From a phage: a stretch of DNA of 64,000 bases. Within the stretch, counting starts at the first letter, position 1; each line of letters opens with the position of its first letter. The notes under the pieces are model-generated. The model saw only the letters and a program-made list of their open reading frames with translations, was not told where the DNA came from and ran no database searches. Below, piece after piece: positions 736 to 41,104 of this stretch. The position numbers were made by a program, and so were the translations under genes. Location of the stretch: sequence record PQ478073.1. One strand, 5' to 3'.

Positions 736-742
736 ACGAAAA

Positions 743-769: not shown

Positions 770-770
770 A

Positions 771-2735: not shown

Positions 2736-2817
2736 TAAATATTTCCTCAGAATAGATTATATATGATGTATTTATTTTAGTTAAAAGAAAAGGCCAACCA
2801 TAGTTGACCTTATAATA

Positions 2818-14118: not shown

Positions 14119-14127
14119 GGATTAGAA

Positions 14128-19263: not shown

Positions 19264-19303
19264 GTTTATTAATTAGAGTGACGTGAATCACATAGGAGAA
19301 TAC

Positions 19304-21592: not shown

Positions 21593-21602
21593 AAAAAGAA
21601 AA

Positions 21603-21627
21603 GGAGAGCAACATGCTCTCCTTTTTT
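21603..21627. terminator. bidirectional intrinsic terminator
   Basis: GGAGAGC-aacat-GCTCTCC hairpin flanked by an A-run (21591-21602) and a T6 run (21622-21627); between convergent genes. Confidence 0.8.
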
Positions 21628-21628
21628 A

Positions 21629-24600
21629 TTATTTAACTAATAATATATTTTTAATATCATTACCACTAACTTGTAGACTATCAGTGTATACTGAAAGATC
21701 TATAGTGTAACTATTTTGTGTGTAACGTTTTAACATATCATAATTACCTAAATTAATTCCATTGAATGAATATGTAGTATTAAGTTTAAAATCATGTTCT
21801 GCACTATACATTACTCCACGGAGTAAATTATTTGCATTTCTAACTTCAACTTTTTCATATCCAATCGATATAATATCATTTATGTTCGCGGCAGAACCGG
21901 ATAAAACATTATTTCTAATACTATAAGGACTTATTGATTTAGGTTGAGAAACATAGGTTGTATTTTCTTCACTAATGGTTGTGATGTTAGTAACCGTACC
22001 ACCAACAACACCGATGTACATACCGTCAACCATTGGATAACCATAAACCCATATACCTTCATTATTTCTAAACGGTTGAATAACACTTGAATCATATTCA
22101 ATAACGTTGATTTCTAAACTATCAGTCATTTTAGTTCTTGCTAATTCACTAAGAACTCCCGCACCAGTAATTGGTAGGTTATAACCGTTGTCGATAGTAA
22201 TTCCATCAACATCAAATATTTCGTTAGAGATTATCCAAACGTCAACGTCATCTGGTGTTATTCCGTCATTGTACTTACCACCATTTAAAGTAGTATCGTA
22301 GAAAACATCATAATTAATTACATCAATTGTGTAATTTCTATTTTGTTCGTACAATTTGATACCATTCTTCACAAATTCTGGGTCAGCAAATGTTCTAACA
22401 CGAACAATGTTCAATGCAAGAGGCTGTACTGGCTCATTTTGTTGTGCAAGAGTGATATTATCATAACGGAGAACTGCACCAGTACTCTCATCAATCAATT
22501 CAATCGTTTCTTTACCTGTATTTCTTACAGTGAATAGGATCGGAGTTGTATTGTTTTTGATGTTAGATACACGCAAGATTGTTTCCCATGTGTGATTTTG
22601 ATATCTCACAAAATCTTCACCATCAGGAGTGAAAATCATCACCTTATCACCATCAGATAGGTCATTGTCAACTATTTCTGCTTCAGTTAAGCTATTAATA
22701 GATCTCACACGATAGAAATATTTTTCATCAAACTTCGATGTTGTTTTATTAATATCATTTTCAATCTTAGCATATGAAGGAATACTAACAATTGCTTCTG
22801 TATGTTTATATGGATTGATAATTGCCATACCTTCAGTTTGATATCTGCTGTTATCACGTAATTGTACAAGAGATACATTGTCAAACCCATATCCATCAAC
22901 TGTAAATCTAATTTGACCAACATCACGCCCAGAAGGGTTTATGTCAGATATATCCACAATATAAGGATCAACTTCATCATCTTTAACTTCCCATTTTATT
23001 GAAGAAGTTTGAGATTCTAATGCTAGGTTATCAAATGCATTCATATCATTGAAGTACTTAGCTTCAGTAATACTATCAAGTATATATTGATAATCTGAAT
23101 ACATTGGGTTATTTTGATCTAGTGGTAAATCATCTAGATTTATTTCAGCTAGTTCAATCATTTCACCATTTGTGATAAAATAATCTTCCATGAAATCATC
23201 AATACTTTGTTCATCAGGTATACTTTGATATACACCGTTAACATTTAAGTAAACATATTTTCGTGGAATCATTGTAATTGCATAGATATCAATTGGGGTT
23301 TTACTAAGAATCTCTTCAGCTTTTTCGTACTTATCAGTAGCGTCTTTGTCGAATAACCCTCTCATACCTGCTAATACGTGAATAGCATCAGTATAGAAAC
23401 GGGTATCACCACCGACTTCATCATAACGATAAACATATACACCATACTCAACTTCAAGTTTAACTTTTACTTCATAGTCTGATGCGTCAGGATTTTTATC
23501 TTTAATTAATGAAATATATTTTTGATACAGTTCACTGCTTATTTCAAAATATCCATAGTTATAATCATTACTAGAAGAAAAGCCTAATGGAAGTCTAGTA
23601 CTAGGATTGTCATTATAAGTAAGTCCACTAAATCCACAACCAACTTCATCGTGAATTTTCTCATCACTTATATCTTTATAAAGTTTCAAACGGTTTGCCA
23701 ATGTGTTATACTGAACATATTGTCTAAGGTCAGTAAACATATCGTTCTGCGTTGATTCTTTATAAACACGCTCCAATGTAGCAGTAAATTCATCAGTTGC
23801 TTCTAAATCTTCCGCATGGTCTTTATACCACTGGTTAACACCATATGCTGTTCCTAATGTTACATCCAATTCTGGATAGTAGATTTGCATTTGATAAGCA
23901 ATAAGAAGATCGAAAGTTTCTTCACTATATTCTGGGAAAGAATATATATAACGTTGTAATTCATAGTTACTAACAGCATCCTTTTCATTGGATTGATATT
24001 TGTTATTAACACTTACTAATTCATTTATGCTTGCTAAATCTGCATTTGGTTTACATTGAATGTTATCGTAATGCATAATAATATCAATTTCTTGGAATCT
24101 TCTATTTGGTGTAATGAAATCACTTGGTAGTGAACCTACCTGTTCCCATTTTTGGGTAATTTCATTAAATTGAGCGTACTCATAATCCCAAATATCTTTT
24201 TCAGTTTTGACCCAAGAACCGTCAACGAAAATATATCCATTAGGATCTAAATCATTACACAGACCTTTTATTAAATCATCATCAGATGTCTTTTGCTCTA
24301 TTTGTGAACGAATTTTAGTTCTATAAGGTTTAACTTCTTCAAAATATTCAACAATTTGATTAATCAAATTATCGTTTGAATAGTTTTGAACTAATGATTG
24401 TTCCAAACCAACAATATAGATATATGATGTTTTAAATACCCAATCCACAACACTTTGTTCAACATGTACATATTTGACCATATCAAAAACAATTTCGCTT
24501 TGATGTAAATCGAAAGAATTTTTGAGTAAAGCTAGTGCTTTACGAACGTTGATTTCACGATTGCTTAGTGAACCATTATCATTATGAACACTATAATCTG

Positions 24601-27600
24601 CGTAAAGCATATCATTGAGTTCAACTGTACTGTTTTCACGACCAATCGCTTTCCAATAAATTGAATCGCGTGATTGTGATTTAATATACAATGTCCAAAT
24701 GTTTTCACTATCGGTAACTCTGATAATATCTCCAACTTGGTAGTTTTTAGTATTAGCATCTTCTAAGCTTGACTCTTGTGTATAAGTCGTGTTACTATCA
24801 TACCCAACATCATACCAATCAGCATATGACCAGTACTGAGTCATGTCCAATGAAGTTCCTAGTGATTCAACATAATCAGATTGTTTAATCATTTTATGTT
24901 GTCCCTCACCTTTGTTCTCTAACGTTATAGTAACAACACTACCCGCGTTTGCTGGACTATTCATTAACTGAATATATCCATTTTCGTCGAAGTGAATAAA
25001 ATAAACAGCACTAGAAGTTAATGGATTTGGTAGATATCCACTAGTACTTAAAATAACAGCGTCATTTTCTTTAAATTTATCACTTTCAACTGCAATAACT
25101 AATTCATTATTGTAAGACAATACACGGAAAGAAACTTCATTCGGGTTAACTTCAGTGGTTTTAACATTAAACACATCTTCCATAACAACACTATTAGTGG
25201 TTATGTTTTGTGACCTATAATAATTATTAGCACTTTCTACAAAGTTTCTACGAGCTTCTATAACATTTTGGAACCAAGTTTTGTTTGAACCTAAACCGTT
25301 ATCAACATCTGGATATAATAAATTAATCACAGAACCTGATTCAGTTGTTTCTTGACCAATTAGTGAGTTCCACATTGAATCCCAAATTAGTGGGTTAAAG
25401 TTATAGCTGTCACCTTCTTTACATAGTTGATACTGGTCATGTTTAACAACTTCAGTACTATCCATGTAATAAGAAACAGTTAAAATACTGGTATCATCAT
25501 TCACTTTAAATTGCATATTACTAAGAATAAACGAGTTTTCATTGATTGGAGCGAACCAAGGAATGTTTAGCTGTGTTGGATCTTTAATAATACGAGCAAT
25601 GTCAGTACATGATTTTGTTCTGGTATGTAGTGGTGGTACATAAATTGTATCACGTACCCAGAAATAGTATTTTGTCACATAACTATCAGTTGAACTATCA
25701 TATTCCAAAAATGTACTATAATTATCTTCAAGTGCAGTTCCACTTGGTAGATACATAGTATTATTTTTGTTTTTCTTAGCAACATCTTTACAGTATTTGT
25801 CCCAGTTATATGGCTCAACTGGTGAACAAACCCACTCTAACACATCAATTGTACTATGTGGTAATAAACGACCCCAGTTGTAACGTTTGTATTCATTGGT
25901 TGCATCAATGTCAACATTACCGTCTGCGTCATAAATTGCACGAGTATAATCCAAATAAAATGCAGTGCTAGTGTTCCACCATACTTGACCAACTTTATCA
26001 GCACCCCAAGCCTGGATTAACTCTCCATTACTATTATACTGTGCAGGATCAACTGGTGAAGTATATGTTACGTTTTGCATAGCCGCACCTGGAATAACAC
26101 CATTAATTGGGTCATAAACGTTTAGATATAGCTCAGTAATGTTAGTACGTTCATCATATGTCGTTGGACGATCAAATAAAGTACTTTGTGGTGCTTTAAA
26201 ACTATATTTCTTGTCAATGTAAGCTTGACGTTCATCAGTACTGGCAAAACGTGATACATAACGATACAAACGTGGACGTGTATCTGGATCAGTAAATTCA
26301 ATATCAATAGAAGTGTCAAATGGAACTACCATAACTTTAGGATCAGAACCAGCAGTATAATATTGACTTTCTACTGTTAAAGTATCTGGCATAAAGTTAG
26401 TTTCATCAACAAAATAATAATAATCACCATCTTCAAGTGGTACATTATCAGTTAAAGTTACTTTACAAAATTGTTCAGCATACACATCGGTATTTTCAAT
26501 AGGTGTTATAGAAACCATTTGAACATTAGTATCAACCAATTCAAAAATGTTCCACAAACCATTACCGTCTTTAAACATCCACACAGATTCAGGATTTTCA
26601 CCTTTACCATTAGTATAAGTTATGCGGTCATTATATGCAGTACTGAAATCTTTTGTTGTGTACGATACTTCATCCAATGTTACTGGACCAATATCTGGAA
26701 GTTGGATATTTTCACTTCTTCCACTACGCATTGGGAATGAGAACTTACCATTTGGACGTGTAATCCAACGAGGATCTTTACCCTGCTCACCGAAGTATAC
26801 AATATGATTACCATTACCATTTGAAGTTGCATTTACATCAAAAGAAACCATTTGAGGTTGTTGTTTAAATTGGTCATTGATTAGTTTAAATTGAAGGTTT
26901 TTCTTACCATCAATATTACCATATGTACCAATTTTAAATGCCCATTCTTGTAATGCTTTATATTCATCAGTGTCATATGATTTAGAAACACGAAGGACAC
27001 GTTCTAAAACTTGGTTAGTACCTTTATCGTGAATGAATCCTTTATAGAAATCAACACGACTAACATCACTACTAATCATACGCTGTAGATAATCACGAGA
27101 TTGATAACCAATCAAATGGTTTGACAACTCTTGTAATTGTACATCACTTACTGGAGTTTCACTATCATAATAATGTTGGAAATCCGACACTAATTTTTCA
27201 AATGATGGTAGTGTTCCAGCTTCCAAGATAATAAATCCAGGAGCTTGTAGGCGACCAGTCCATGAACCAGTAATATATCCATACATTTTAATTAGTTCTT
27301 GAATAGAACCATATGTTGGCTGATAAATGTAATCACCAAAAATAGTTTTATCATCAAAAATAACAGCATGTTCATATGAACACAAACTTAAACGAATCAA
27401 TGCAATGCGTTTATTAGATTCTAAAGTTCTAACAGTGAAGATATTTCCAATACGAGAAGTTTCAATTTCATATTGGCGAATACCTTGGTTATTATCATCA
27501 AGTAATGACCATACACCACCATTATTTTGCGTAATAGATTGTACTGAACCAAAGTCTGCCCCAAATTTAGCGTTTGCAGCACTTGGGGTACAAGAAATAA

Positions 27601-30600
27601 ATTCACCAGTTACTAGAGAATTCTGACTCCAGATCACGAAATCTTTAGCAATAGTGTTCCAATCTTGTTGAGCACCACTATCATTTACATCTTCAAAAAT
27701 CCAACCATGTTCTTTAAGATATTCACCATATCCACAAATAAAAGTATAAACTTCTTGGTAACTATTGAAAACTTTACCATATTCAATTGAAGCTTCAGAC
27801 TTCCATTCATTATAATGAACAACATTACGGTTTTCCAATTTAAGAGTTACTTTTCTACCATTTTTTACGGGAAGTTTATATTTAAATTTAGCACCAACTA
27901 GATCATATCCATCAATCTGATATGCACTACCATTCCAAGTAATTTTGATCGCACTCATTTGCTCATCACGGATATTATTAGAACGAACAAGACCAATGGT
28001 TTGGTTTTCTTGTGAAATAAGACCGAAAGATTTAGCATTGAATGTTAGCTGATCTGCTTTAGTAAATCCTCCAATTTTATGACCAACATTTATATAAGAA
28101 GAACGAACTACATCCCCATACTTGGTGGTAATATTTTTATTTTGATACATCAAATGGTCACTTACAAACATTTGATAACCAATTGTTCTTGTGCTATTTT
28201 CACCATGAACTACTGTATTTTTATCAAAATTAATACGCTTACGTGTATCACCATAAAGGAATTGTGAACCATCAGTGAATACTTCTTTTAAGTTATCATT
28301 GCGGGTATCCCAGAAATAGTTAGCAAATTGTGCTGGTTTAGCTTTATACAAAAGCATCATTTGGTCATATGCAAACAATGTAGTGTTCATGTATGTAAAT
28401 TCCATGTCACCCATATCACCATATGTCCAAGGTTCTGCTCTATGATTTAAAGATCCAGACACTAAACCTAAAATTTCAGGTGCAATATATTCAACCACAC
28501 AAATATCAATACCAGAAGATGTTTTATTTCCAGTTTTTGTAATTTTGAATGGCTGTACACCAAATCTTTTATATTTGTCATATTGACCACGACGATCACC
28601 AAATAAAATAGTTCCAGTACTGCTATCGCCAATACTTCCGTCAATATCCCAAAGACCACTAGGAACTAAATCACCTTGCTCATTCATAACAAGTGCTTCA
28701 TATACATATACAACATCACTATCACGTTCACCAACTTGAACAGCCGTTGGTTCGTATTCTTGGTTCCACCAAGTTGGACGTTGTGTAAAGCCAAACATTT
28801 CCCACGGATGGGTAGCTGGGCGATATGTACCATATTGGTCAGTGTAAATGGCACGCCATGAACCACGTGCAGGAATTTCAGTACTTTGACCATTAACTAC
28901 ATAATAAGTGCCAGTATAGTTCCAAGTTCTCCAATTGTTAGGATCATAATCATGTGTACTATTACTGATACCATTAGTTGCGGTGAAGTTAATGTATCCA
29001 CGTAGTAATAATGTTTGTTTCTCTTCAGCACTATATTCAGTTTTAGTGAAATATGGTGTAGGGAAAAGGTCATCACTATTCAATACTGGTACGTAATCAA
29101 CATCTTTGAATTTATTATCAATACTATTAAAAATTCTATTTTCTAATTCATATACAACATCATCCATTTTATCAACACCATTGATAACACGGTATGCTTT
29201 GGAAATAATACCAGTATGACTGATGTTATAACAGCTTGGTTTACTACCAGCAGTGAGGAATGTCGCTTTTTCTGGTACATATGCTTGAAGAATACCTAAG
29301 AACTGTGGTGTTGGTGGTATAAATGCACGAATGAATCCAGAAGTACTTCCAACATTATCATAATAGAATGGGAATGAACTATCACGTCCCATATTAATAG
29401 TAGTTAAAATTGCATCAACAATGTTTGCAGCACTATTTTGTAAAAAGTCTGATGGATTTTCATCATACATACGAAGCATTTGTGTATTAAATTTATTAAT
29501 GAATCTAAAATATTCAGATTGCATAAACATAGTTGCTTCAAATAAATCAATATCTTCATTTGCAGTATGTGCCATCAATGGAAGCATAGATGCTTCATTT
29601 TGGATAATTTTAGTACCTACGCCATTATTAACCAATCCTTTAGCCAAACGTTCTTCATAGTCATTGAAATCATCAGAAGAACCACGTGTAATGTTCTTTT
29701 GAATAATATCCTGAAAATGTAAAGTGTAGTCACCTTGGTTAATGTATATAATATTAGAATTATATGGGTTATTTTGTAGGTTGATTGGAACTTCATAAGC
29801 ACCTAATTCTTTATCAGGTGTTACAGTACTGCTATAAGTTCTGATTTGAATAACAGAATCTTCATCCAATTCTACAGTACTATCTAGAGTGATGCTTTGT
29901 ACTTGACCTTTTGAAACATTTTTGGTATATTTGGACACATCAACACCATCAACCACAACTTCAATAATATCAGAATCATTATCTAAAACTTTTTGTGCCA
30001 ATTCGAATGTATGGTCATATTTTACAATCTGAACACCATCACCAGTAATTGGATGCCAATCTAGATAAGTTTCTCGGTCAGCTTTATAGTACTGATATGT
30101 TCTATCAACTTCAATAACATATGCATACATACCATCAACTGGTTCTTTAAAAACTTCCATATCATAAACAGTACTGAATACACGATACATATCAGTACGT
30201 TTGACTTGTGGAGTTTGTTTTACAAATTGTTTAGAGTACTCTTCTGAACGAACCCAATCGGTTTGAAGATTCATTTCATTATTTTCATCAATAATGTTAT
30301 AATAGTATAAACCATCAATTTCAACTTCTTTTCCAAGATGGTCATAGGTATAACGTTGGGATTGTAAAAAGTTTTCATAAATGTAATAATTATAATCACC
30401 AAGTTCAATGTTATATCCATATACACTATCAGTTGCATAGTTGTAATTTATTTTAAAACCAAACAACTCTGAACCTTTAAAGTTACTTGATGGATATGTA
30501 GTACTGTTGTCAAGTTTGATACCATTACGATCATAAAGTTGGAATTTAGGGAATACGTTAACACTAGTTTTTGATTGTGCACGAACCCACAAAGAACCAT

Positions 30601-31600
30601 TCCAGTACATAGAACTATTACCATACTCATTACCTTTAGTGATTAGAACAACATCACCATCTTGAGGTTCACCACTTGGGCGTGATTCGGTTTCTTCTTC
30701 TGGATCTAGTGCTAAACCATAAACACGAGTACCATCTTGCATTTTTTTCACATATACATTATAAATTCTATTGTTTTCACCATTGTTACCAATACTGGTG
30801 AATAGAATACGCATTCCATCTTGCGGAATAATACCATCAATACGTATACCACTATTAATATCTTTTTGAACGATATCTTCAGGTTTAATAATATCAGAGA
30901 ACAGATCAACAGTTCCACGGAATTTTGTACCGTAGTTAATTAGCTCAATATTTTTATTATATTCAATAATTGGTGCACGTGCACGAATAAAACGTGAATC
31001 TTGCATTAATTCTTCAGTTAATATTGAGCCATCTTCTAATGTTTCACCTAAAGTATACCAAAAGTTTTGTAGTGACCATGTATTACCATTAAGTGCTCCG
31101 CGTTCCATTACAATGTAATCAGGTGAAGTAATATTATAAGAGTTTTTAGTATCCCAAAGATATGAGCTAAAATTGTTCATTTTATTTGGGTTAATAGCTG
31201 GAGTCCATGCATAAAACTTACCGTTGAACAAACGGCTTTCATTATCGGTTAGTGCTCCATAATGATTCATGTATCCAACTAGATCATCATAAAATTGAAT
31301 TGAACGAATTGTCGAATCATCATTTTTTGAGACGTAAGCAGTGGACAACTGATAAAGTTGACGTGCTACAGTACTTTCATGTAAGAAGATATTACCAGCA
31401 GCGGCAGGAGAACCCATATCACCAATATAGCCGTCAACTAATTCGTTTTCAGCCGGATTAAACCATTGTTGAATAACATCATCACTGACTTTTTGAATAT
31501 CTTCTAAGCCTTGCATCCACTCAGGCAATCTTTTAATAAAAAGCTTCTTCTGTACTGCTTCAGCCATCTGTGTAGGTTGAAACTTAAAATTATTAGTCAT
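21629..31600 (-). CDS. giant baseplate-associated structural protein (3323 aa from ATG 31600; 3333 aa from ATG 31630)
   Basis: Single uninterrupted ORF of ~10 kb, last gene of the baseplate operon after the gp25-like and gp6-like genes (the gp7 position in T4/P2-type order). ATG 31600 has a GGAG SD; the track ATG at 31630 has none. Confidence 0.6.
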   Translation of the reverse strand: MTNNFKFQPTQMAEAVQKKLFIKRLPEWMQGLEDIQKVSDDVIQQWFNPAENELVDGYIGDMGSPAAAGNIFLHESTVARQLYQLSTAYVSKNDDSTIRSIQFYDDLVGYMNHYGALTDNESRLFNGKFYAWTPAINPNKMNNFSSYLWDTKNSYNITSPDYIVMERGALNGNTWSLQNFWYTLGETLEDGSILTEELMQDSRFIRARAPIIEYNKNIELINYGTKFRGTVDLFSDIIKPEDIVQKDINSGIRIDGIIPQDGMRILFTSIGNNGENNRIYNVYVKKMQDGTRVYGLALDPEEETESRPSGEPQDGDVVLITKGNEYGNSSMYWNGSLWVRAQSKTSVNVFPKFQLYDRNGIKLDNSTTYPSSNFKGSELFGFKINYNYATDSVYGYNIELGDYNYYIYENFLQSQRYTYDHLGKEVEIDGLYYYNIIDENNEMNLQTDWVRSEEYSKQFVKQTPQVKRTDMYRVFSTVYDMEVFKEPVDGMYAYVIEVDRTYQYYKADRETYLDWHPITGDGVQIVKYDHTFELAQKVLDNDSDIIEVVVDGVDVSKYTKNVSKGQVQSITLDSTVELDEDSVIQIRTYSSTVTPDKELGAYEVPINLQNNPYNSNIIYINQGDYTLHFQDIIQKNITRGSSDDFNDYEERLAKGLVNNGVGTKIIQNEASMLPLMAHTANEDIDLFEATMFMQSEYFRFINKFNTQMLRMYDENPSDFLQNSAANIVDAILTTINMGRDSSFPFYYDNVGSTSGFIRAFIPPTPQFLGILQAYVPEKATFLTAGSKPSCYNISHTGIISKAYRVINGVDKMDDVVYELENRIFNSIDNKFKDVDYVPVLNSDDLFPTPYFTKTEYSAEEKQTLLLRGYINFTATNGISNSTHDYDPNNWRTWNYTGTYYVVNGQSTEIPARGSWRAIYTDQYGTYRPATHPWEMFGFTQRPTWWNQEYEPTAVQVGERDSDVVYVYEALVMNEQGDLVPSGLWDIDGSIGDSSTGTILFGDRRGQYDKYKRFGVQPFKITKTGNKTSSGIDICVVEYIAPEILGLVSGSLNHRAEPWTYGDMGDMEFTYMNTTLFAYDQMMLLYKAKPAQFANYFWDTRNDNLKEVFTDGSQFLYGDTRKRINFDKNTVVHGENSTRTIGYQMFVSDHLMYQNKNITTKYGDVVRSSYINVGHKIGGFTKADQLTFNAKSFGLISQENQTIGLVRSNNIRDEQMSAIKITWNGSAYQIDGYDLVGAKFKYKLPVKNGRKVTLKLENRNVVHYNEWKSEASIEYGKVFNSYQEVYTFICGYGEYLKEHGWIFEDVNDSGAQQDWNTIAKDFVIWSQNSLVTGEFISCTPSAANAKFGADFGSVQSITQNNGGVWSLLDDNNQGIRQYEIETSRIGNIFTVRTLESNKRIALIRLSLCSYEHAVIFDDKTIFGDYIYQPTYGSIQELIKMYGYITGSWTGRLQAPGFIILEAGTLPSFEKLVSDFQHYYDSETPVSDVQLQELSNHLIGYQSRDYLQRMISSDVSRVDFYKGFIHDKGTNQVLERVLRVSKSYDTDEYKALQEWAFKIGTYGNIDGKKNLQFKLINDQFKQQPQMVSFDVNATSNGNGNHIVYFGEQGKDPRWITRPNGKFSFPMRSGRSENIQLPDIGPVTLDEVSYTTKDFSTAYNDRITYTNGKGENPESVWMFKDGNGLWNIFELVDTNVQMVSITPIENTDVYAEQFCKVTLTDNVPLEDGDYYYFVDETNFMPDTLTVESQYYTAGSDPKVMVVPFDTSIDIEFTDPDTRPRLYRYVSRFASTDERQAYIDKKYSFKAPQSTLFDRPTTYDERTNITELYLNVYDPINGVIPGAAMQNVTYTSPVDPAQYNSNGELIQAWGADKVGQVWWNTSTAFYLDYTRAIYDADGNVDIDATNEYKRYNWGRLLPHSTIDVLEWVCSPVEPYNWDKYCKDVAKKNKNNTMYLPSGTALEDNYSTFLEYDSSTDSYVTKYYFWVRDTIYVPPLHTRTKSCTDIARIIKDPTQLNIPWFAPINENSFILSNMQFKVNDDTSILTVSYYMDSTEVVKHDQYQLCKEGDSYNFNPLIWDSMWNSLIGQETTESGSVINLLYPDVDNGLGSNKTWFQNVIEARRNFVESANNYYRSQNITTNSVVMEDVFNVKTTEVNPNEVSFRVLSYNNELVIAVESDKFKENDAVILSTSGYLPNPLTSSAVYFIHFDENGYIQLMNSPANAGSVVTITLENKGEGQHKMIKQSDYVESLGTSLDMTQYWSYADWYDVGYDSNTTYTQESSLEDANTKNYQVGDIIRVTDSENIWTLYIKSQSRDSIYWKAIGRENSTVELNDMLYADYSVHNDNGSLSNREINVRKALALLKNSFDLHQSEIVFDMVKYVHVEQSVVDWVFKTSYIYIVGLEQSLVQNYSNDNLINQIVEYFEEVKPYRTKIRSQIEQKTSDDDLIKGLCNDLDPNGYIFVDGSWVKTEKDIWDYEYAQFNEITQKWEQVGSLPSDFITPNRRFQEIDIIMHYDNIQCKPNADLASINELVSVNNKYQSNEKDAVSNYELQRYIYSFPEYSEETFDLLIAYQMQIYYPELDVTLGTAYGVNQWYKDHAEDLEATDEFTATLERVYKESTQNDMFTDLRQYVQYNTLANRLKLYKDISDEKIHDEVGCGFSGLTYNDNPSTRLPLGFSSSNDYNYGYFEISSELYQKYISLIKDKNPDASDYEVKVKLEVEYGVYVYRYDEVGGDTRFYTDAIHVLAGMRGLFDKDATDKYEKAEEILSKTPIDIYAITMIPRKYVYLNVNGVYQSIPDEQSIDDFMEDYFITNGEMIELAEINLDDLPLDQNNPMYSDYQYILDSITEAKYFNDMNAFDNLALESQTSSIKWEVKDDEVDPYIVDISDINPSGRDVGQIRFTVDGYGFDNVSLVQLRDNSRYQTEGMAIINPYKHTEAIVSIPSYAKIENDINKTTSKFDEKYFYRVRSINSLTEAEIVDNDLSDGDKVMIFTPDGEDFVRYQNHTWETILRVSNIKNNTTPILFTVRNTGKETIELIDESTGAVLRYDNITLAQQNEPVQPLALNIVRVRTFADPEFVKNGIKLYEQNRNYTIDVINYDVFYDTTLNGGKYNDGITPDDVDVWIISNEIFDVDGITIDNGYNLPITGAGVLSELARTKMTDSLEINVIEYDSSVIQPFRNNEGIWVYGYPMVDGMYIGVVGGTVTNITTISEENTTYVSQPKSISPYSIRNNVLSGSAANINDIISIGYEKVEVRNANNLLRGVMYSAEHDFKLNTTYSFNGINLGNYDMLKRYTQNSYTIDLSVYTDSLQVSGNDIKNILLVK

Positions 31601-31636
31601 TTTTGGACTCCATATAATTCGTTCATTCATTTGATT

Positions 31637-31643
31637 TATTTAT
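31637..31643 (-). promoter_or_regulatory. candidate late promoter (ATAAATA) for giant gene
   Basis: Minus-strand ATAAATA ~37 nt upstream of ATG 31600, just downstream of a terminator. Confidence 0.35.
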
Positions 31644-31647
31644 GATA

Positions 31648-31672
31648 TAAAAAAGGCGTTCCGAAGAACGCC
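31648..31672 (-). terminator. intrinsic terminator (minus strand), UUCG tetraloop
   Basis: Plus-strand GGCGTTC-cgaa-GAACGCC (31655-31672); on the minus strand this is a UUCG-loop hairpin followed by a T6 run (complement of 31649-31654). Confidence 0.7.
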
Positions 31673-31679
31673 CGTTATA

Positions 31680-34600
31680 TTAAGAACCGATATTAATATT
31701 ACTTTTAGCTAGTGAGTTAACAATTTGAACATTTTCAACAGATGCAGTACTCAAGAATATTTGGTCTGAACGTGAAGGGATTTCAAATAGAGAACCAAAT
31801 TTTGAATTTGGATTTTGTGCAACTATAACAATAGTACTAATATGTCTACCTAACTGTGAGTGTATGTAAGTACACAAATCAGTATAATAGAAACTTTCAC
31901 CGAAATCCCAGTTATCAACATTGAAGTATTCATTAGTTAATGCTATGACATTTTGACGAATTTCATCATCACTCATTGTGCTGTTTGGTAATTTCACTAC
32001 TTTAAAATCAGCTTTGTAATCTTCAGCAGCACTGTTTCCAAATAAAGGTAAGTACTCAGCACTATGCCAAATGATACTATCACTAATGACTATTTTTTGT
32101 TCAACATCTTTGAACATATCTTTTAATTCAACCGATGTTGGTGGTTTAGGAATACTACCAACAGCATTATTTTTCAACCAAACGTCAACTTCAGTTTTAT
32201 ATGAATTGGTTAATACATACATATCAATTAAGTTTGTTCTACTAGGATCAATGCGATTGTCGTCAGGTGCATAGTGTTTCCAATGGAAGTCTATACTAGT
32301 ACGTGCATTAGTTTTAACAGTGTACTGTGAAGTAACATCTTTGTATCCATAATAATCTAGCTTCTGATTCTCGTCAGCATTAGTTCCCATGTTATTAATT
32401 GCACGATAAAAAGCCAATTCAGGACTAACAGTGCCAGTATCATCGGAATAAGTTAAATTACTAATTAGTTGTCCCAAACGATCATTGTTATTGCCAACTG
32501 TTTGTTCAATAAAATAATATTTACCATCATAGTTAAAACCAACTAAAAATCCAGAACCTTTACTATATAATCCACTCAATGTGGTTGAACGAATTGCGTT
32601 ATTTCTAACAAATTCAGTTCTTTTATATGCATTCGGCTCTGCCAAAGCTTGTTCCATTGTATAAGACCACGATGAATCAAGAAGTGTGAAGGTATCATTT
32701 GGTAACGACAGTACTGATATAGTGAAATCACTATTTTCCTGAAATACCAAAATACCACCATATTTTAATGCATCGGTTCCAGTCCAAGTAGGAACAATTT
32801 CTTTAAATTGGTTTGGTTCCAATGGTATACCATTACTATCTACTTTCCTAGATGTAACAATAACACGAGAACCATCTAGATAGCCATTCTCTTGTTGAAT
32901 TGTGTCATAAATTTGAAAATCTATATTACTTGTCAATCCTGAATTACTACTACTAGTAGTGTTAGATGATAAAATTTCAATCTTATCACTTTGAACTGTA
33001 CCAGTACTTATATCAGTAATTTTTTTAGATGATACAAAGTAAAATCTTACTTTTTCTCCACCCACAAAAATATATTCAATACCGTTAGCATCAAATTCCC
33101 AAGTTTCTGCTGTATATTTTACATTTATTATAATTAAAACTTCATTACCATTATACACAATAGTATCGTCATTAGTACTTGCTTCGATTGGAACCCATGA
33201 AGTTGTTTCTTTATCATGTACAATTACAAAATCGGTTTTTTTATCCAACATAGCAGAAATAGACTGAACTTCAACTGTGTTAAATCTAGTTCTATATGGT
33301 AATATGTACTCTATTGCTTGCATTCCACTAGGAACAGATGTGCTTAGTACATAAAAACCATTATCTAACACACTTACAACACTTGCCCATATCGTAGTAC
33401 CAGAATTAGAAAATTTAATAAGAGTACCTACCTGATACGAACCATACACTGTTCCAGACGAACCCAAAATTCTGCCATATGTATTGGTTGTGTAATTTGA
33501 ATTGTACACTGGAGTCCATGCTTGTTGTATTTCAATACCAATTGTATTGGATGGATACGCTTGATAACGTTGTATTACTGCATTTTCCCCAATCAATGGT
33601 TGAATATTGTCAATAACAATACTAGCATTTGTTTTTGTAGTTGGGAGCAATAACGATCTATTAAATTGCGTGTTTTCTTGATATAATGCACCATCATCAC
33701 TAAAAACGTCGGTATTCTGATACTTACCAGTAGGATCATTGATATCAATGAACCTTGATTGACCACTATAAATTCTATTAATAGCTTTAGATTTAAGTAC
33801 TGTATTTCCTAAACTAAGTGGTGCTATATTATAATCTTCACCATTGACAAAACGGTTTTGGGTATAGTACATTTGTGGTGCACGTGCTTTAATCTGCTCA
33901 ATAGTTTCAGCACTTTGTGCACGGTCGGACTCATATTGTAATGAAAAACGTATATCCAATGTACTAGATTCATAACTTGACTGTGTTTTTGTACGATATG
34001 TATATTTTACGCTTTTATTTTGAATTTCAGAAGTTTTAATGTTATATGTTTTACCATTACTAACACGATACCATACACGGAACGTCCCACGGGGAACAAC
34101 ACCACTTCTTGAGTCTGGGTACTTAATTGTTATTTGGTCTTTATCACGAGTAGTAACAGCAAAAATTGTTTTTAATTGACGATTAACAGTGTTATATGCA
34201 ATACTTTCCATTGATGGAACTTTTGTCCATTTGGTACGAACAATACCATCTTCATTTATTTCTTGAACCCATACATCAGTTTCGTTGATATTATCAACGT
34301 TAATATCTTGTATACGGTTCTCTTCACGGATAGCATATTGATAATCTTGATATGTTAATGTACCTTGTACGAAATATACAAAAAACCCAGTATTTGGTGA
34401 GCTAAATCCATTACCATCATTTTGATAAACAATATATTTTTGCTCTTGTGGTTCTGGATGTCGTTCTTCAACACCAACAGACGTAATGTCAGGATTCACT
34501 ACTTCAAATGTCATAGATTCACCATTGACAGTTGCAATAAATGGAATACTGGGTGCTGTCATTGGGATGGTGTTCATTCGATATAGTTGACGGGAGACAC

Positions 34601-35141
34601 CATTAACATCAATACGCTTGACTGGATTACCAAATTGGTTAGTACTGACAAATGAACTGTTCATTACTAGAATAAAGTTTTCATACCAGTTAGCATCCAT
34701 CGGGTCATTCCAACGAATAATTTTATCTTTTAATGATTCATTAAAACTATTACGAACATCTTGGTTTGTTTTAATTTCGGTTAATTTAGCAACTGCACGA
34801 CCTGGATATGAGCGGCGTGGTGAGTAAGAAATCATTTTAGCTAGTTTTAGTACTGATGCACGACGAGTTGCAGTATCTAAAAAGTTTTCACGTGTGTTCA
34901 AATCCATACGAAATGCCAAGTTCTGACCTAGCATAGAAATCGTATCTAAAATAAAAATAAACTGGTCGTTTTCGATCCAGTCATTGAATGAGTCTGGGTA
35001 AGTTGCACGTAGATAATCAATCATACTCTGACGGATAGTGTCGAAATCATAAGCTGTTAGATTGATTTTATAAAAACTTTCATATACTTGAGTCCAATCC
35101 TCACCAGCGTATAAATTTGATTGCCTTTTTTGTTGTGACAT
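31680..35141 (-). CDS. baseplate wedge protein, gp6 / Baseplate-J-like candidate (1153 aa)
   Basis: Sits immediately downstream of the gp25-like gene (the conserved gp25-gp6 / W-J order); AAGGA SD. The assignment is mainly positional. Confidence 0.45.
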   Translation of the reverse strand: MSQQKRQSNLYAGEDWTQVYESFYKINLTAYDFDTIRQSMIDYLRATYPDSFNDWIENDQFIFILDTISMLGQNLAFRMDLNTRENFLDTATRRASVLKLAKMISYSPRRSYPGRAVAKLTEIKTNQDVRNSFNESLKDKIIRWNDPMDANWYENFILVMNSSFVSTNQFGNPVKRIDVNGVSRQLYRMNTIPMTAPSIPFIATVNGESMTFEVVNPDITSVGVEERHPEPQEQKYIVYQNDGNGFSSPNTGFFVYFVQGTLTYQDYQYAIREENRIQDINVDNINETDVWVQEINEDGIVRTKWTKVPSMESIAYNTVNRQLKTIFAVTTRDKDQITIKYPDSRSGVVPRGTFRVWYRVSNGKTYNIKTSEIQNKSVKYTYRTKTQSSYESSTLDIRFSLQYESDRAQSAETIEQIKARAPQMYYTQNRFVNGEDYNIAPLSLGNTVLKSKAINRIYSGQSRFIDINDPTGKYQNTDVFSDDGALYQENTQFNRSLLLPTTKTNASIVIDNIQPLIGENAVIQRYQAYPSNTIGIEIQQAWTPVYNSNYTTNTYGRILGSSGTVYGSYQVGTLIKFSNSGTTIWASVVSVLDNGFYVLSTSVPSGMQAIEYILPYRTRFNTVEVQSISAMLDKKTDFVIVHDKETTSWVPIEASTNDDTIVYNGNEVLIIINVKYTAETWEFDANGIEYIFVGGEKVRFYFVSSKKITDISTGTVQSDKIEILSSNTTSSSNSGLTSNIDFQIYDTIQQENGYLDGSRVIVTSRKVDSNGIPLEPNQFKEIVPTWTGTDALKYGGILVFQENSDFTISVLSLPNDTFTLLDSSWSYTMEQALAEPNAYKRTEFVRNNAIRSTTLSGLYSKGSGFLVGFNYDGKYYFIEQTVGNNNDRLGQLISNLTYSDDTGTVSPELAFYRAINNMGTNADENQKLDYYGYKDVTSQYTVKTNARTSIDFHWKHYAPDDNRIDPSRTNLIDMYVLTNSYKTEVDVWLKNNAVGSIPKPPTSVELKDMFKDVEQKIVISDSIIWHSAEYLPLFGNSAAEDYKADFKVVKLPNSTMSDDEIRQNVIALTNEYFNVDNWDFGESFYYTDLCTYIHSQLGRHISTIVIVAQNPNSKFGSLFEIPSRSDQIFLSTASVENVQIVNSLAKSNINIGS

Positions 35142-35199
35142 AATTTATTCCTTTAAATCAGTAAAGTACTAGTTCAGTACTGGGAATTATATATAGAAA

Positions 35200-35206
35200 T
35201 ATTTAT
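35200..35206 (-). promoter_or_regulatory. candidate late promoter (ATAAATAT) for gp6-like gene
   Basis: Minus-strand ATAAATA(T) between the terminator and the SD of the 35141 start. Confidence 0.35.
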
Positions 35207-35214
35207 TCAAAAAG

Positions 35215-35238
35215 AAAAGCACTCCGAAGAGTGCTTTT
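35215..35238 (-). terminator. intrinsic terminator (minus strand), UUCG tetraloop
   Basis: Plus-strand AAAAGCACTC-cgaa-GAGTGCTTTT; on the minus strand the hairpin is followed by TTTTCTTTTT. Confidence 0.7.
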
Positions 35239-35242
35239 ATAA

Positions 35243-35638
35243 TTATAAAGACGAAACTGAATATGTTGCCATTCGGTTATTACTTCTAGCATCAAATACA
35301 ATAGTAAGTTCTTCTAATGCATCTAATACTACATACTCTAATACGATGTTCATTTGATAACCATATTCTATTCTTGAAATTTGCAATTTCTTGAGATTCA
35401 ATCTTGGATCTAAGCTAATTATTCTACGGGCATCTGCTTCTAAAAGGTTGATAGTATTATAACCTTCTAGTTCAAATAACAAATCCCATGCAATAAAACC
35501 ATAGTCCGCATCAAATGCTCTTTCGCCTTTTTTTGTGTTAAAATGATTCATTAAATCTTGACGAACCAGTTCACTATCATACAATGTTTCGGTTCTACCC
35601 ACAACAGGAGTATGAAATCCTTTAAAAACAACTGCCAT
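35243..35638 (-). CDS. 25: baseplate wedge protein, gp25 / GPW-like (131 aa)
   Basis: Size and pattern RTETLYDSELVRQDLMNHFNTKKGERAFDADYGFIAWDLLFE resemble T4 gp25 (...TRKGSRPFDPEFGCDLSDQLFE...); located between lysozyme and the gp6-like gene. Confidence 0.7.
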   Translation of the reverse strand: MAVVFKGFHTPVVGRTETLYDSELVRQDLMNHFNTKKGERAFDADYGFIAWDLLFELEGYNTINLLEADARRIISLDPRLNLKKLQISRIEYGYQMNIVLEYVVLDALEELTIVFDARSNNRMATYSVSSL

Positions 35639-35652
35639 TGATTATTCCTTTA

Positions 35653-36141
35653 TTATACGGATTCAACGATACGTGCCATCTTTTCCGCTCTTGAAGTGGT
35701 TTGTTTATACCAAGTACTATCACGCATTTCTTTACCAGCAGTTTTGTAATCACCCTTACCCAAAGCAGTGAGTGCTTTTTTGAATTTCAAAACTTTGGTT
35801 TTGCCCATTTGGAATACCATTAACCATAATACACGTTGTACTTGGACTGGTGCGGTCATACCAAATTGTTCATAAATTGATTTTGCATCATTGTACGCAG
35901 TTTGTGCATCTTTAAGAAGAAGTTGGTCAGCTTGTGATTCAGTTAGTCCATTTTTGAAGTTTTCACCTGGAAGAACTAGATGACCATAACCAATAGTATC
36001 AAGACCTAAGCTGTCTTTATATACCCAAAACTTATCATTTTTAAAATAACCAAGTTTTTTCTGGTATGCAATTGTACCTTCAAATTCTTTTACTTCTTTG
36101 AAAAATTGCTCATCTGTATTTTTAATTTCCCATTTACTCAT
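35653..36141 (-). CDS. e: T4-type lysozyme (GH24), endolysin candidate (162 aa)
   Basis: EFEG...YKDSLGLDTIGYGHL (Glu/Asp/Thr catalytic pattern of T4 lysozyme) and LWLMVFQMGKTKVLKF; paralogous to the C-terminal domain of the neighbouring gp5-like protein. Confidence 0.88.
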   Translation of the reverse strand: MSKWEIKNTDEQFFKEVKEFEGTIAYQKKLGYFKNDKFWVYKDSLGLDTIGYGHLVLPGENFKNGLTESQADQLLLKDAQTAYNDAKSIYEQFGMTAPVQVQRVLWLMVFQMGKTKVLKFKKALTALGKGDYKTAGKEMRDSTWYKQTTSRAEKMARIVESV

Positions 36142-36157
36142 AAAGATATCCTCGTTT

Positions 36158-36165
36158 TATTTATA
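36158..36165 (-). promoter_or_regulatory. candidate late promoter (TATAAATA) for lysozyme gene
   Basis: Exact minus-strand TATAAATA 17 nt upstream of ATG 36141. Confidence 0.4.
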
Positions 36166-36177
36166 GTGCTAAAATAT

Positions 36178-38841
36178 TTATTGACATGCCTCCAAACGAC
36201 GAGCCATTAACTCCGCACGGCGGGTGGTTTGGCGATACCAAGCAGAATTGCGGATTTGTGCCGCTGCTTGTTTATAATTACCTTTTGCCATTTCTGATAA
36301 CATAGTTTTAAATTTCAATACACCACCTTTACCCATCTGAAATACCATTTGGCATAGTACTTGTTGAGCAAGATAAGGAGTTTTCATGTTATATGAAGCA
36401 TAAATTGATTTGGCATCATAAATTGCTTTACTACTATCACGAACTAACATATCATTTGCTTGTTGTTCAGTTATTCCATCAGAGAAGTTTTCACCGCTAA
36501 CAATTAAGTGACCGTAACCAATAGTTGGATATCCACGACTATCTAAATAACGCCAGAACTTACCATTACGATAATACCCCTTTGCTTGTTGATATTGTAA
36601 TGTACCCTCATATTCTTTTAATTCAGAAATAAACTGAGCATCACCAGGAACAACTTTCCAATCTATGGCTGTTTTATCAACATTACCTATATTATAAGTT
36701 GGTTGCTCAACTGGCGTAGTTGAAACACCACTTCTTTGTGTTCTTCTTCGACGAGGAACATGTCGTGAACCACGTTGTGAATAACCTGTACCAATTGTTT
36801 TAATTTTTGTAGTAACTACTAATTCATCACTATCAACAGAAGGTTGCACTACTGCTTGAGGTGCAGATTGATTGGTTGCTTTTCCTGCAATTAATGTTTT
36901 ATTGGCTGCGTCAGAACCAGTACCAGTTTGAGATGCATAAAATAGACCCGGATCAACTGAACCGCTAAAACCAAGCACGTTAGCTGATGTAACACGTATT
37001 TCAAACTGTATAACACCATTTGCTTTACCAACAACTTGGCCTTTTTGAACAACATCTTTGTTTAATAAATCAGATTGAATATTATAAAATACAGATTTAT
37101 ATCCTGACTTATGTTGTATTAACAGTGCACCATTAGTAATTACTATTACACCACCATCGGGTGCAACTATGTCACCTTTACATTGTATTTCCCATCCAGA
37201 ACGATCTGACTTCCCACCACTTTGTGTTGGAACACCTTTCCCCCAATAACCATATTGGCGAATAGTACCACTACATGGCATGAACATATGTAAACCTTCA
37301 TATGTAATACTATATCCAGTCATCCCAGGGTCAGATGTCATTAAATCTTGAGATTGCACTTGTTCAGTTTCTGATGTATAGTTAACAAACTGAACAGCTT
37401 CAGTGTCTTGTGCTACGGGTAATTCTGGTGATACATCATTTGCTGGTTGTGGTTGTACTGGTGATTCACTAGAACCACTTCCACCACCTTGTCTTGGTGG
37501 TTCAACATAACTACCATGATTTTCAGCGTTAACCCATGCAGCAATATCATGAATGTGTTCATTAAGACCAGCAGATGGTGTTCTAAAGTTTGGTGCAGTA
37601 AATTCAGCAGTACCGCTATTACCACCACTATTAACTGTTAATGTTTGACCACCACCACTAATAATTGCTGATGATGATCCAATTAGGTTTGCAGATGTTG
37701 CGGCAGAAATAGAAGCATTTGAACCAGCCGTAATATCAGTACTGCTACCACTTTGCATACGTAATGATGCAGCAGTAACTAAACGAAGGTCTGCCCCAGA
37801 ATTAACAACAACTTGTCCACCAACTTTTGCATCAAGAGCACCAATTAGATCTAATTTAGTATTTGCACCAACTCGTGCATTGAAATCTTGTCCGGTTTCA
37901 ATATTATATGAACGTCCAGCAGTAATATTAATATCTTGACCAGCACGAATATTAATATTCTTATCACAGTGCATGTCAATATCACCTTCACCAGTGAATT
38001 TTATACGTGCAGTGCCATCACGGTTAATTAAAAGAACATCACCAGTAGCTTCTGATAAAAGAAGTTGTGCACCACTACGTGTTTTTATTACGACACCTTC
38101 ATTTTTACGAGAACCAACACGTGTATCGTTTACTGGGTTATTAAATTGTGTATCTTGATATCCATCTGGGTCTTGATCCCACGTTGGTGCTGTTAATTCC
38201 TCTTCAGTATATCCATCATCAATAATAAAACTATTACCACGTGGCGAAGACATACCATATACAGTACTGGTGGTTTGTCGAGTACTACTACGATTCGCCA
38301 ACCCAGCTTCTTCGTCATATAAAAGGTTTTGCTTTTTAAGACCTGCGATAATTGGAACGTTAGCATATTTGTCTTGCATATCGGTAGTGATAGTGTTACG
38401 ATCATAGTCAGTAACAGGAAGTGGCATATCAGTTCCACCATAATTACTTACTTCAGTTGCCATGCCTGGAACCATAGTATTCATACGCTGGTCATATACA
38501 CAACCAATCCAATATGCTTGGAATGTACGGGCTTGTGCAAAAATTACAACAACTGTACACCCTACGTCTGGTGGTACTGCCCAAAAACCGTATCCTTTTG
38601 GATATTGACCATATGCATCAGCACTTGGAATACCTGGTGTTTTACCAGCAAAAGGAGACATGTAAGATGCTTCTATCCATGATTCTTTTGAGTTTTTATC
38701 ACTTTGAGAACCTTGTATCCAAACTTTCAGTTTTCCTGATTTAGTTGGATCTCTGTTATCCATAACAGTTGCTAACTGCGGATAAGATGGGTCAAAACGA
38801 CCCAACTGCTGTTGTGCATACTTTTTACTTGTATCTGCCAT
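36178..38841 (-). CDS. 5: baseplate central spike, gp5-like, with C-terminal T4-type lysozyme domain (887 aa)
   Basis: N-terminal OB-like region (GKLKVWIQG...); VgrG/gp5-like beta-helical repeats (INIRAGQDINITAGRSYNIETGQDFNARVGANTKLDL...); M23/LytM-like segment lacking the usual His/Asp zinc ligands (~36994-37323); C-terminal GH24 lysozyme (TIGYGHL, QMVFQMGKGGV; ~36181-36663). Confidence 0.75.
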   Translation of the reverse strand: MADTSKKYAQQQLGRFDPSYPQLATVMDNRDPTKSGKLKVWIQGSQSDKNSKESWIEASYMSPFAGKTPGIPSADAYGQYPKGYGFWAVPPDVGCTVVVIFAQARTFQAYWIGCVYDQRMNTMVPGMATEVSNYGGTDMPLPVTDYDRNTITTDMQDKYANVPIIAGLKKQNLLYDEEAGLANRSSTRQTTSTVYGMSSPRGNSFIIDDGYTEEELTAPTWDQDPDGYQDTQFNNPVNDTRVGSRKNEGVVIKTRSGAQLLLSEATGDVLLINRDGTARIKFTGEGDIDMHCDKNINIRAGQDINITAGRSYNIETGQDFNARVGANTKLDLIGALDAKVGGQVVVNSGADLRLVTAASLRMQSGSSTDITAGSNASISAATSANLIGSSSAIISGGGQTLTVNSGGNSGTAEFTAPNFRTPSAGLNEHIHDIAAWVNAENHGSYVEPPRQGGGSGSSESPVQPQPANDVSPELPVAQDTEAVQFVNYTSETEQVQSQDLMTSDPGMTGYSITYEGLHMFMPCSGTIRQYGYWGKGVPTQSGGKSDRSGWEIQCKGDIVAPDGGVIVITNGALLIQHKSGYKSVFYNIQSDLLNKDVVQKGQVVGKANGVIQFEIRVTSANVLGFSGSVDPGLFYASQTGTGSDAANKTLIAGKATNQSAPQAVVQPSVDSDELVVTTKIKTIGTGYSQRGSRHVPRRRRTQRSGVSTTPVEQPTYNIGNVDKTAIDWKVVPGDAQFISELKEYEGTLQYQQAKGYYRNGKFWRYLDSRGYPTIGYGHLIVSGENFSDGITEQQANDMLVRDSSKAIYDAKSIYASYNMKTPYLAQQVLCQMVFQMGKGGVLKFKTMLSEMAKGNYKQAAAQIRNSAWYRQTTRRAELMARRLEACQ

Positions 38842-38854
38842 AATATTTTATTCC

Positions 38855-41104
38855 TTAATCAACTATACTATCGTGACGTTTAAGTGCACGAATTACAATT
38901 GCAGCTTGAATTTGTTGTGTAAAAGAACCACCTGCACCAAAATCATGAACAATTTTATTAACACGATAAATTGTTTGGTTAAATGTGGTTGGTGTATTAA
39001 TATCCAAAACACCAGTGTTATCATTTATTGATATTACTGGTTGTAATTTTAGTAATAGATACGCTTCAGATGTTATATAATTTGCTACATGATAATCATC
39101 TGGGTTAATTTCCATATCTTCACCATTAATTACTTGTTCTAGATATTGTAAGTAAGAGTAATCACTCCACCCTAACCAGTACGGGTCGCCTACTACACGC
39201 ATATCGAGTTTACACAAAAAAGGTCTATTGTAATAGTTGTCACGTATTTTACGTCTATCCATTTCATATGTGCTGCTGTTATCGTTTAACGAAGCGGATA
39301 AAGTTGTTTCATTGTTAGTTGCTTCGGTTGGCATTGTGAACACTTCACCATAACGGTGACCAACACCATCAGTACCGCCATCGTTTTCTTCATAAGTGGT
39401 TACATAATCTTCAATATATTGAGGTAAAACATTGACTTGATAGTTATTATAACGGTCTTGTTCTTCTGCGTTACCAACCTGCATTTGATTTTTTGCTAAA
39501 GTTTCAACTTCAGTTAACAATTGTTGTTGGGCTTGTGTTAACATCCCTCCTAAATCACGAGTTACACGTAAATCACTTGTTTTTGCCCATGCGTCTGGTA
39601 TACTATTGTATTGTACACCTTGAATATTGAGTTCTTGGGATGTATGTGTACCTGCATGGTTCGCTACATCTTGTATCGGACCAGGGTTACGTGTAGTGGC
39701 TACGAAAAATTGCTGATCAAATTTCAAATCCAAATCAAGTATCTCACTATTAAGCCCACTAAATTGATAATTATAAGTTTTCATGTTTATTTTTGGTTTT
39801 TGATCATTAGGATCTACGTATTTTTCTGCGTTCTCAAAAAAGTACTCAAATGTGAAATTTTCAGGTTGTAAATCCGATTCATGAACAATATCACCTATTT
39901 TAAATCTAACAATATAAAAAATTACTTTATAAACAGAAGTATTACGATAATTATCAAAACCAACGTATTGTTTAACTGGTATAATGTTTACAAATTGACG
40001 CACACTAGTACTATCATCGGCTTGTACAGTACATGTATCAATAACGTCATCAATAATTCGAGATATAGGAGTACTTGGGTTCCATGAAAAGTTTTTAGAA
40101 CCTTGTGCACCACTTTTAGTTGTTCCGGCCTCTGCCATTTGTTTAGAATCATAGTTTATAAACAAATCTTGCAAATCAGGTGCTACTTTAAATTCGAAAA
40201 ATTTACCTTCGGATAATTCACCAAATTTATATCTAAGATAACCATATTGTTGGTCAGCCATCTGATTTAATTTATCTTCTAAATCAAAGCAGAAGTCACC
40301 AAAGTTTTCAGCAGTACAATTGAATGGTTCTTTTAAGGTCCATTCAATGTTATCAACTAAAGCTGCTCTATTATGAACTAAGTTCATAGTATACATCATA
40401 GTACTACCACTTTGTGAAGCACTTGCAGTAACACTATTAATTTTAACTGACCAGCGTCTTGTTGTTTCTGGGATAATTTCAGGTATTCCATTTTTATTAA
40501 AGCCAATAAACTTTAATTCCAAGATCAATGGCAAGTCCATAAATTTATGATATCTAAGTTTGTTACTTAACGAAATTAATTCATCATATAGACTCATACT
40601 ATTATTTTCAGACATATTAAGTACTGCTGTATTAAAACAATAGTTTGTTGTCATTCCTGGTGTTGAAGGTCCAGCTTGTGTCATTTGTACACTAGTGATA
40701 TTATATTTGCCAGTAACACCACTTTCTGATATCACATGTCGTTGCACTTCTGCATCTGGGTAAAGCCAAAAGTTTTTAAAATCATCTTTATCTAAGGCAA
40801 ATAAACAAAAGTGCCAAGTTGGGTTATCATATTTCAATAATTTATTGTCATACGGTATTACAAACTGACTTAAATCGAGATCTTCATAAACTTGATCAAC
40901 ACTAGCACTTTGTTTTGGTAATGATACTACATTACTTACATTTGCTTTGTAATTATTTTTTGTAATAGTTTTTACATCATTTTGTAATGTATTTGCTGTA
41001 GCTTTCAAACTATCAAGTGCATTAGATGTGGTGGTTTTAGCCTTACCAGTAATACTTGTAATATCATTTTGAAAATTATCAACTGTACTTCGTAAATCTG
41101 CCAT
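38855..41104 (-). CDS. putative baseplate hub protein (749 aa)
   Basis: Immediately upstream of the gp5-like spike gene in the same operon; no motif recognised, assignment is positional. Confidence 0.4.
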   Translation of the reverse strand: MADLRSTVDNFQNDITSITGKAKTTTSNALDSLKATANTLQNDVKTITKNNYKANVSNVVSLPKQSASVDQVYEDLDLSQFVIPYDNKLLKYDNPTWHFCLFALDKDDFKNFWLYPDAEVQRHVISESGVTGKYNITSVQMTQAGPSTPGMTTNYCFNTAVLNMSENNSMSLYDELISLSNKLRYHKFMDLPLILELKFIGFNKNGIPEIIPETTRRWSVKINSVTASASQSGSTMMYTMNLVHNRAALVDNIEWTLKEPFNCTAENFGDFCFDLEDKLNQMADQQYGYLRYKFGELSEGKFFEFKVAPDLQDLFINYDSKQMAEAGTTKSGAQGSKNFSWNPSTPISRIIDDVIDTCTVQADDSTSVRQFVNIIPVKQYVGFDNYRNTSVYKVIFYIVRFKIGDIVHESDLQPENFTFEYFFENAEKYVDPNDQKPKINMKTYNYQFSGLNSEILDLDLKFDQQFFVATTRNPGPIQDVANHAGTHTSQELNIQGVQYNSIPDAWAKTSDLRVTRDLGGMLTQAQQQLLTEVETLAKNQMQVGNAEEQDRYNNYQVNVLPQYIEDYVTTYEENDGGTDGVGHRYGEVFTMPTEATNNETTLSASLNDNSSTYEMDRRKIRDNYYNRPFLCKLDMRVVGDPYWLGWSDYSYLQYLEQVINGEDMEINPDDYHVANYITSEAYLLLKLQPVISINDNTGVLDINTPTTFNQTIYRVNKIVHDFGAGGSFTQQIQAAIVIRALKRHDSIVD

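Follow-up and report, generated by a model that had tools for sequence, protein, structure and literature searches.

Position and identity of the giant gene

The 64,000-nucleotide (nt) stretch of phage DNA analysed here (sequence record PQ478073.1; hereafter the window) carries on its minus strand a giant virion structural protein gene (21629..31600; 3323 amino acids (aa) plus stop), which probably encodes a large outer baseplate wedge component or scaffold, the positional counterpart of T4 gp7 in RaK2/121Q-like jumbo myoviruses. We favour this outer-wedge, peripheral-scaffold reading because of the position of the gene, its conserved synteny, its coupling to the neighbouring gene, its late expression signals, the presence of its product in virions and a precedent in cyanophages. 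We would like to stress that the gene itself is not a new observation, as it is already catalogued, annotated and represented in three published virion proteomes.

By megablast comparison, the window belongs to Asteriusvirus, the genus of ~350-kb Escherichia coli jumbo myoviruses that includes 121Q, PBECO4 and phAPEC6. The giant gene shares 99.2% nt identity with phAPEC6 and 98.8% with 121Q, while its product is 99% identical to 121Q gp582 and matches phrog_10938 end to end (E = 0, 5788.9 bits, with residues 11-3330 of the longest open reading frame (ORF) on profile positions 1-3324). By these alignments, 121Q gp582 and phAPEC6 gp245 are its orthologs, and comparison with these and with the 'virion structural protein' of PBECO4, RaK2, GAP32 and CBB (CBB_236) reveals the same gene, the same neighbours and nothing substantively different. 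The protein is part of the particle in related phages: phAPEC6 gp245 (381.88 kDa) was found in the virion proteome with 17 unique peptides (PMC7247149), the CBB_236 ortholog was found with 21 peptides (PMC5259590), and the PA5oct ortholog, flagged as detected by mass spectrometry, is named among the two largest proteins (PMC7318152). The papers describing phAPEC6, CBB, PA5oct and Atu_ph07 give the giant no function and list no gp7 homologue (PMC7247149, PMC5259590, PMC7318152). Two annotations of orthologs look wrong, namely 'D-alanyl-D-alanine carboxypeptidase' in phage EJP2 and 'chitin-binding type-3 domain-containing protein' in phage PAC2.

Immediately upstream of the giant lies a gp6-like baseplate wedge gene (31680..35141, minus strand, 1153 aa), preceded in turn by a gp25-like baseplate wedge gene (35243..35638, minus strand; Pfam GPW_gp25, E 1.5e-8). 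Residues 26-125 of the gp6-like protein match phrog_219 (E 1.2e-20), and a small profile of this protein and its relatives reaches an hhalign probability of 95.9% to gp6 of cyanophage Bellamy and 30.6% to T4 gp6. In 121Q, PA5oct, Atu_ph07, Vibrio phage 2.275.O and two metagenomic contigs alike, gp25 is followed by a gp6-like gene of 1130-1320 aa and then by the giant; in PA5oct, Atu_ph07 and the two metagenomic contigs, the gp6-like ORF either overlaps the giant ORF or directly adjoins it. In the window and five further lineages, the giant thus occupies the place of gp7 in a gp25-gp6-gp7 module, directly downstream of gp6.

Gene integrity, start codon and expression signals

The longest ORF is unbroken on the minus strand (21629..31630; 3333 codons plus stop). 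ATG 31630, with which it begins, lies only 13 nt from ATAAATA, a T4-type late-promoter-like motif (31637..31643, minus strand), and has no ribosome-binding site. ATG 31600, ten codons further in, is preceded at 7 nt by a GGAG Shine-Dalgarno sequence (31611-31608), stands 43 nt from the motif, a distance typical of other genes in the window, and is the start in all homologues and in the 121Q and phAPEC6 annotations. Because the Shine-Dalgarno spacing, the motif distance and the homologue starts and annotations agree, the true start is probably ATG 31600, and the ten extra codons (31601..31630, minus strand) are probably 5' leader rather than coding. The product is most likely a protein of 3323 aa and 381.8 kDa, with an isoelectric point of 4.6.

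Between the gp6-like stop codon and the giant ORF are placed both a hairpin terminator (31654..31673, minus strand; 8 pairs, 5 of them G-C, then a T run) and the ATAAATA motif. In the window as a whole, 15 of 18 ATAAATA copies are followed within 80 nt by a same-strand gene start, and 13 of these 15 are intergenic, though non-coding DNA makes up only ~9% of the window. Because so many copies precede same-strand gene starts, the motif is, judged by its placement, a late-type promoter mark and not a chance occurrence. The window also holds a gene for a gp55-like late sigma factor (42293-43132).

An earlier, sequence-only reading of this DNA had described a single ~10-kb ORF of 3333 codons, following gp25-like and gp6-like genes, with its own ATAAATA behind a terminator and far larger than T4 gp7. 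These descriptions are borne out by the uninterrupted frame (with the start moved ten codons inward), by the Pfam, phrog and hhalign matches of the neighbours, by the motif at 31643-31637 following the hairpin at 31673-31654, and by the 1032 aa of T4 gp7. The same reading had called for a check that the ORF is not the product of a sequencing error or frameshift, and the single gene was upheld. At least 35 phage records from independent genomes carry 80% or more of the ORF without interruption, homologues of roughly 3300-3350 aa (3310-3361 aa) reach down to 44% identity, and against phage BF17 (82% nt identity) all 3323 codons align without a gap; these records and this alignment give no sign of stops or frameshifts that would split it. 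The ratio of nonsynonymous to synonymous substitution rates (dN/dS) against BF17 is 0.085 for the whole gene and stays at 0.04-0.13 in each block of 300 codons, a codon pattern by which the gene is under purifying selection throughout its length. A few database records do divide the region into 3-11 separate ORFs (CMSTMSU and the Salmonella phages SD-1_S14, SD-2_S15 and SD-6_S16), as would be expected if ordinary genes had been joined by sequencing or assembly error or if a programmed frameshift were needed; these split ORFs are best explained as assembly errors. With more than 1000 metagenomic clusters also encoding giants and the 381.88-kDa product included in a published proteome, we regard the chance that the gene is an artefact as negligible.

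A large family with a conserved core

Relatives were counted by an exhaustive HMMER search with aa 1253-2452, grouping sequences into clusters at 50% identity. The family comprises 1217 clusters at E <= 1e-3 and 751 at E <= 1e-30; the best 150 of the 1217 clusters are almost all 2000-6281 aa long, and some members lie on contigs of 481-512 kb. Likewise, a word-indexed search found 195 relatives, the best 120 of which are all 2780-5638 aa. A conserved core (aa ~14-2460; 24251..31591, minus strand) can be aligned in all distant giants and is interrupted by insertion hot spots near aa 159, 470-590, 760, 950-1050, 1252, 1600-1825 and 2143-2260. Distant members carry CBM_5_12 and FG-GAP modules at these hot spots, and in other lineages CBM5/12, FG-GAP or YHYH modules occupy hot-spot or C-terminal positions.

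The remaining C-terminal ~873 aa (21632..24250, minus strand) are lineage-specific and recognisable only in enterobacterial RaK2-like phages. This part, of ~870 aa, evolves faster than the rest, with 40% identity to CBB versus 63% and the highest dN/dS of the protein. When other phage proteins were searched for reuse of the C-terminal 873 aa, these occurred only inside the giant gene.

AlphaFold2 (AF2) models were built from 23-sequence alignments. The model of aa 11-1210 has a mean predicted local distance difference test score (pLDDT) of 85.6 and a predicted template modelling score (pTM) of 0.78, and that of aa 1253-2452 has values of 75.6 and 0.46. Each model is a string of globular domains of mixed alpha/beta type, with ~25% helix and ~26% strand. 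Two helical stretches, aa 24-57 and aa 1418-1553, are poorly modelled. No stretch of the family is more conserved than the second (26972..27379, minus strand), which consists of low-confidence AF2 helices, and the coincidence of highest conservation with poor modelling suggests a partner-dependent interface, with which other wedge proteins may be bound.

A Pfam search of the giant and 12 relatives found no family in the window's giant, including no lysozyme or peptidase domain, and neither phmmer nor a 42-sequence profile found a match among all Protein Data Bank (PDB) sequences even at E <= 10. Self-comparison of the giant revealed no internal repeats, and a hydropathy scan found no hydrophobic or transmembrane segment (maximum 19-residue Kyte-Doolittle mean 1.55).

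Relation to T4 gp7 and to giant cyanophage gp7

A precedent for a giant in this position comes from Synechococcus phage Bellamy, a T4-like cyanophage in which gp25 and gp6 are followed by a 4067-aa gene, 111 (all within 26115-40773). In a Foldseek search of BFVD with the aa 1253-2452 model, the top match outside the family was the Bellamy 'baseplate wedge initiator' (E 7.5e-7, probability 0.75). A profile of the first 1200 aa of the Bellamy protein matches T4 gp7 724-815 at residues ~190-298 with 96% hhalign probability, inside the family-defining core of T4 gp7 (residues 643-1012). Because of this match, giant gp7 homologues exist as judged by profile comparison, and in Bellamy the gp7 core lies near the N-terminus. 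The window's giant also has one small domain in common with the Bellamy type of protein: aa 2177-2247 (24890..25102, minus strand) match the cyanophage gp7 repeats 853-919 and 956-1032 (hhalign P 1.7e-4), compared with P 0.5 for a reversed control. The two giants are alike in standing directly after gp25 and gp6, and each has relatives with YHYH or carbohydrate-binding modules. They differ in that residues 190-298 of the Bellamy (Kyanoviridae) protein are homologous to T4 gp7, whereas the equivalent signal in the window's giant does not rise above control, and in that the 2400-aa conserved core of the window giant's family is not found in the cyanophage protein.

T4 gp7 itself and the giant are both encoded directly downstream of gp25 and gp6, are late-expressed virion proteins, and are large and multi-domain with peripheral domains; the giant is, however, 3.2 times larger and shows no detectable match to the Gp7_helical, domain V and domain VI families or to the gp7 structure. 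BLASTP of the giant against T4 gp7 gave E 0.77, hhalign comparison with the gp7 core gave P 0.025-0.9 and no link, and a small gp7 profile (the T4 gp7 C-terminus with 5 close fragments) found nothing in the giant. Pfam Gp7_helical, Gp7_5th and Gp7_6th have no match in the giant or the 12 relatives, although these families also miss Bellamy gp7, which hhalign does join to T4. The family profile found nothing by hhalign among single sequences of T4 gp5, 6, 7, 8, 9, 10, 11, 12, 53 and wac. Homology of the giant to T4 gp7 is thus not demonstrated. The proposal of the sequence-only reading, a protein in the gp7-equivalent position that may fuse wedge, fibre-network and enzymatic or adhesin modules, stands in part: the gp7 position and the conserved synteny are supported, but no enzymatic module was found and gp7 homology was not demonstrated. 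The third wedge protein of simple contractile systems (P2 gpI, Mu gp48, P1 BplA, TssG and the gp7-like part of Afp12/Alg12) was also counted among the closest systems.

Several candidate links to gp7 were dropped. A motif match between giant residues 1507-1553, 'IGYQxRxYL...FYKGFIxxKGTxxVFxKVLR', and gp7 'DFYxSKGTxxSFxxLFK' (P 0.025-0.04) scores 28.7 against 25-26.7 for reversed profiles and was not counted as evidence. A colinear alignment of giant 1420-2250 with cyanophage gp7 70-920 failed, only isolated small domains matching, and no signal was obtained for a gp7-like part hidden in the 1153-aa gp6-like neighbour, as occurs in Afp12/Alg12.

A separate ~65-aa domain ('IddEIItY...RGxxGT'), at cyanophage gp7 positions 64-130, turns up again in variable inserts of many giants and close to their C-termini, with E down to 3.4e-6 among 264 sequences (for example, at residues 1581-1638 and 1973-2398 of two members). 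It is only faint in the window's giant (aa 3251-3301).

Proposed role and alternative explanations

If the giant is an outer wedge scaffold, one copy per wedge, and hence six per virion, would associate with the gp6-like dimer and with the gp25-like and gp53-like proteins. This association may be made through the conserved, poorly modelled helical aa 1418-1553, the N-terminal helices at aa 24-57, or both. The conserved core (aa 14-2460) would then build an enlarged baseplate rim, and the fast-evolving C-terminal ~870 aa, together with the insertion hot spots, would lie on its outer side as attachment sites for the several tail fibres and tailspikes of these phages. A bolder and more tentative version, which we consider possible but distinctly less probable, is that the giant is not a diverged gp7 at all. 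It would instead be the founder of a separate giant-baseplate superfamily of mostly new folds that replaced gp7 throughout one radiation of jumbo phages, with aa 1418-1553 as a new and highly conserved interface coupling the oversized, multi-fibre baseplate to the universal gp25/gp6 trigger.

It is unlikely that the giant is not a wedge subunit but a fibre-network or adhesin hub attached to the baseplate, which would bind host surface glycans or carry the branched fibres from a peripheral position and leave the gp7 role to another protein, for instance the 749-aa virion protein encoded nearby (38855..41104). The giant lacks beta-helix, collagen, coiled-coil and repeat signatures as well as internal repeats, its 2400-aa core has stayed conserved in phages of extremely divergent hosts, which sets it apart from receptor-binding proteins, and its gene and the gp6-like gene are tightly coupled. 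The 749-aa neighbour, without a PDB or Pfam match, lacks a gp7 signal too, as does the gp6-like protein. Identity as a tail fibre or tailspike was rejected, no trimeric fibrous or beta-helical repeats, depolymerase or receptor-binding domain having been found.

We consider it more improbable still that the giant sits elsewhere in the virion, as sheath or collar 'hairs', a head or ejected internal protein or a tape-measure-like protein, and that the baseplate neighbourhood is mere gene order. phAPEC6 and CBB do bear unusual hair-like fibres to which no genes are assigned (PMC7247149, PMC5259590), and mass spectrometry gives presence in the virion without location. However, the family also occurs in lineages outside those described as hairy (PA5oct, Atu_ph07, Vibrio and metagenomic phages), and its synteny with gp25 and gp6 is conserved. 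With only ~25% helix, many globular domains, 19-residue hydropathy no higher than 1.55, no transmembrane or hydrophobic segment and no lysozyme or peptidase domain, the giant is unlike a tape measure or ejected internal protein. On balance, the outer wedge scaffold remains the explanation that we prefer.

The giant is the largest gene of these phages, and ~2400 aa of its product are conserved over a very large radiation of jumbo phages, most of them uncultivated. The family is confidently foldable by AF2, has no solved-structure relative or Pfam match and has never been placed in a structure; it stands at a key position of the contractile machine in jumbo phages. If it is a wedge scaffold that couples fibres to the gp25/gp6 contraction trigger, it would explain the enlarged, multi-receptor baseplates of jumbo myoviruses and open a way to engineer the host range of therapeutic phages of the RaK2/121Q type.

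Neighbouring genes

Past the giant stop codon, a bidirectional hairpin terminator (21597..21627) is common to the giant gene and a convergent gene for a two-ring ClpA/ClpB-like AAA+ protein (19283-21592, plus strand). Vibrio phage 2.275.O also has a Clp ATPase gene, ~5 kb away from its giant. The ClpA/ClpB-like protein might act as a chaperone for the 382-kDa giant. Further downstream, the same tail region holds genes for a colanic-acid-degrading tailspike-like protein (10239-12380, minus strand) and an 1841-aa tail fibre (3661-9186, minus strand), whose products are candidate cargo of a fibre-docking scaffold.

On the other side of the wedge genes, a small 162-aa lysozyme (35653..36141, minus strand) is a paralogue of the C-terminal lysozyme domain (phrog_13211 positions 727-885) in the adjoining gp5-like hub with lysozyme (36178..38841, minus strand). 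In 121Q, an HNH 'intron-associated' endonuclease gene (13721-14485 of the compared 121Q stretch) lies between gp25 and the gp6-like gene; the corresponding gap in the window (35142-35242) lacks this gene and holds instead a terminator (35238-35215) and an ATAAATA motif (35206).

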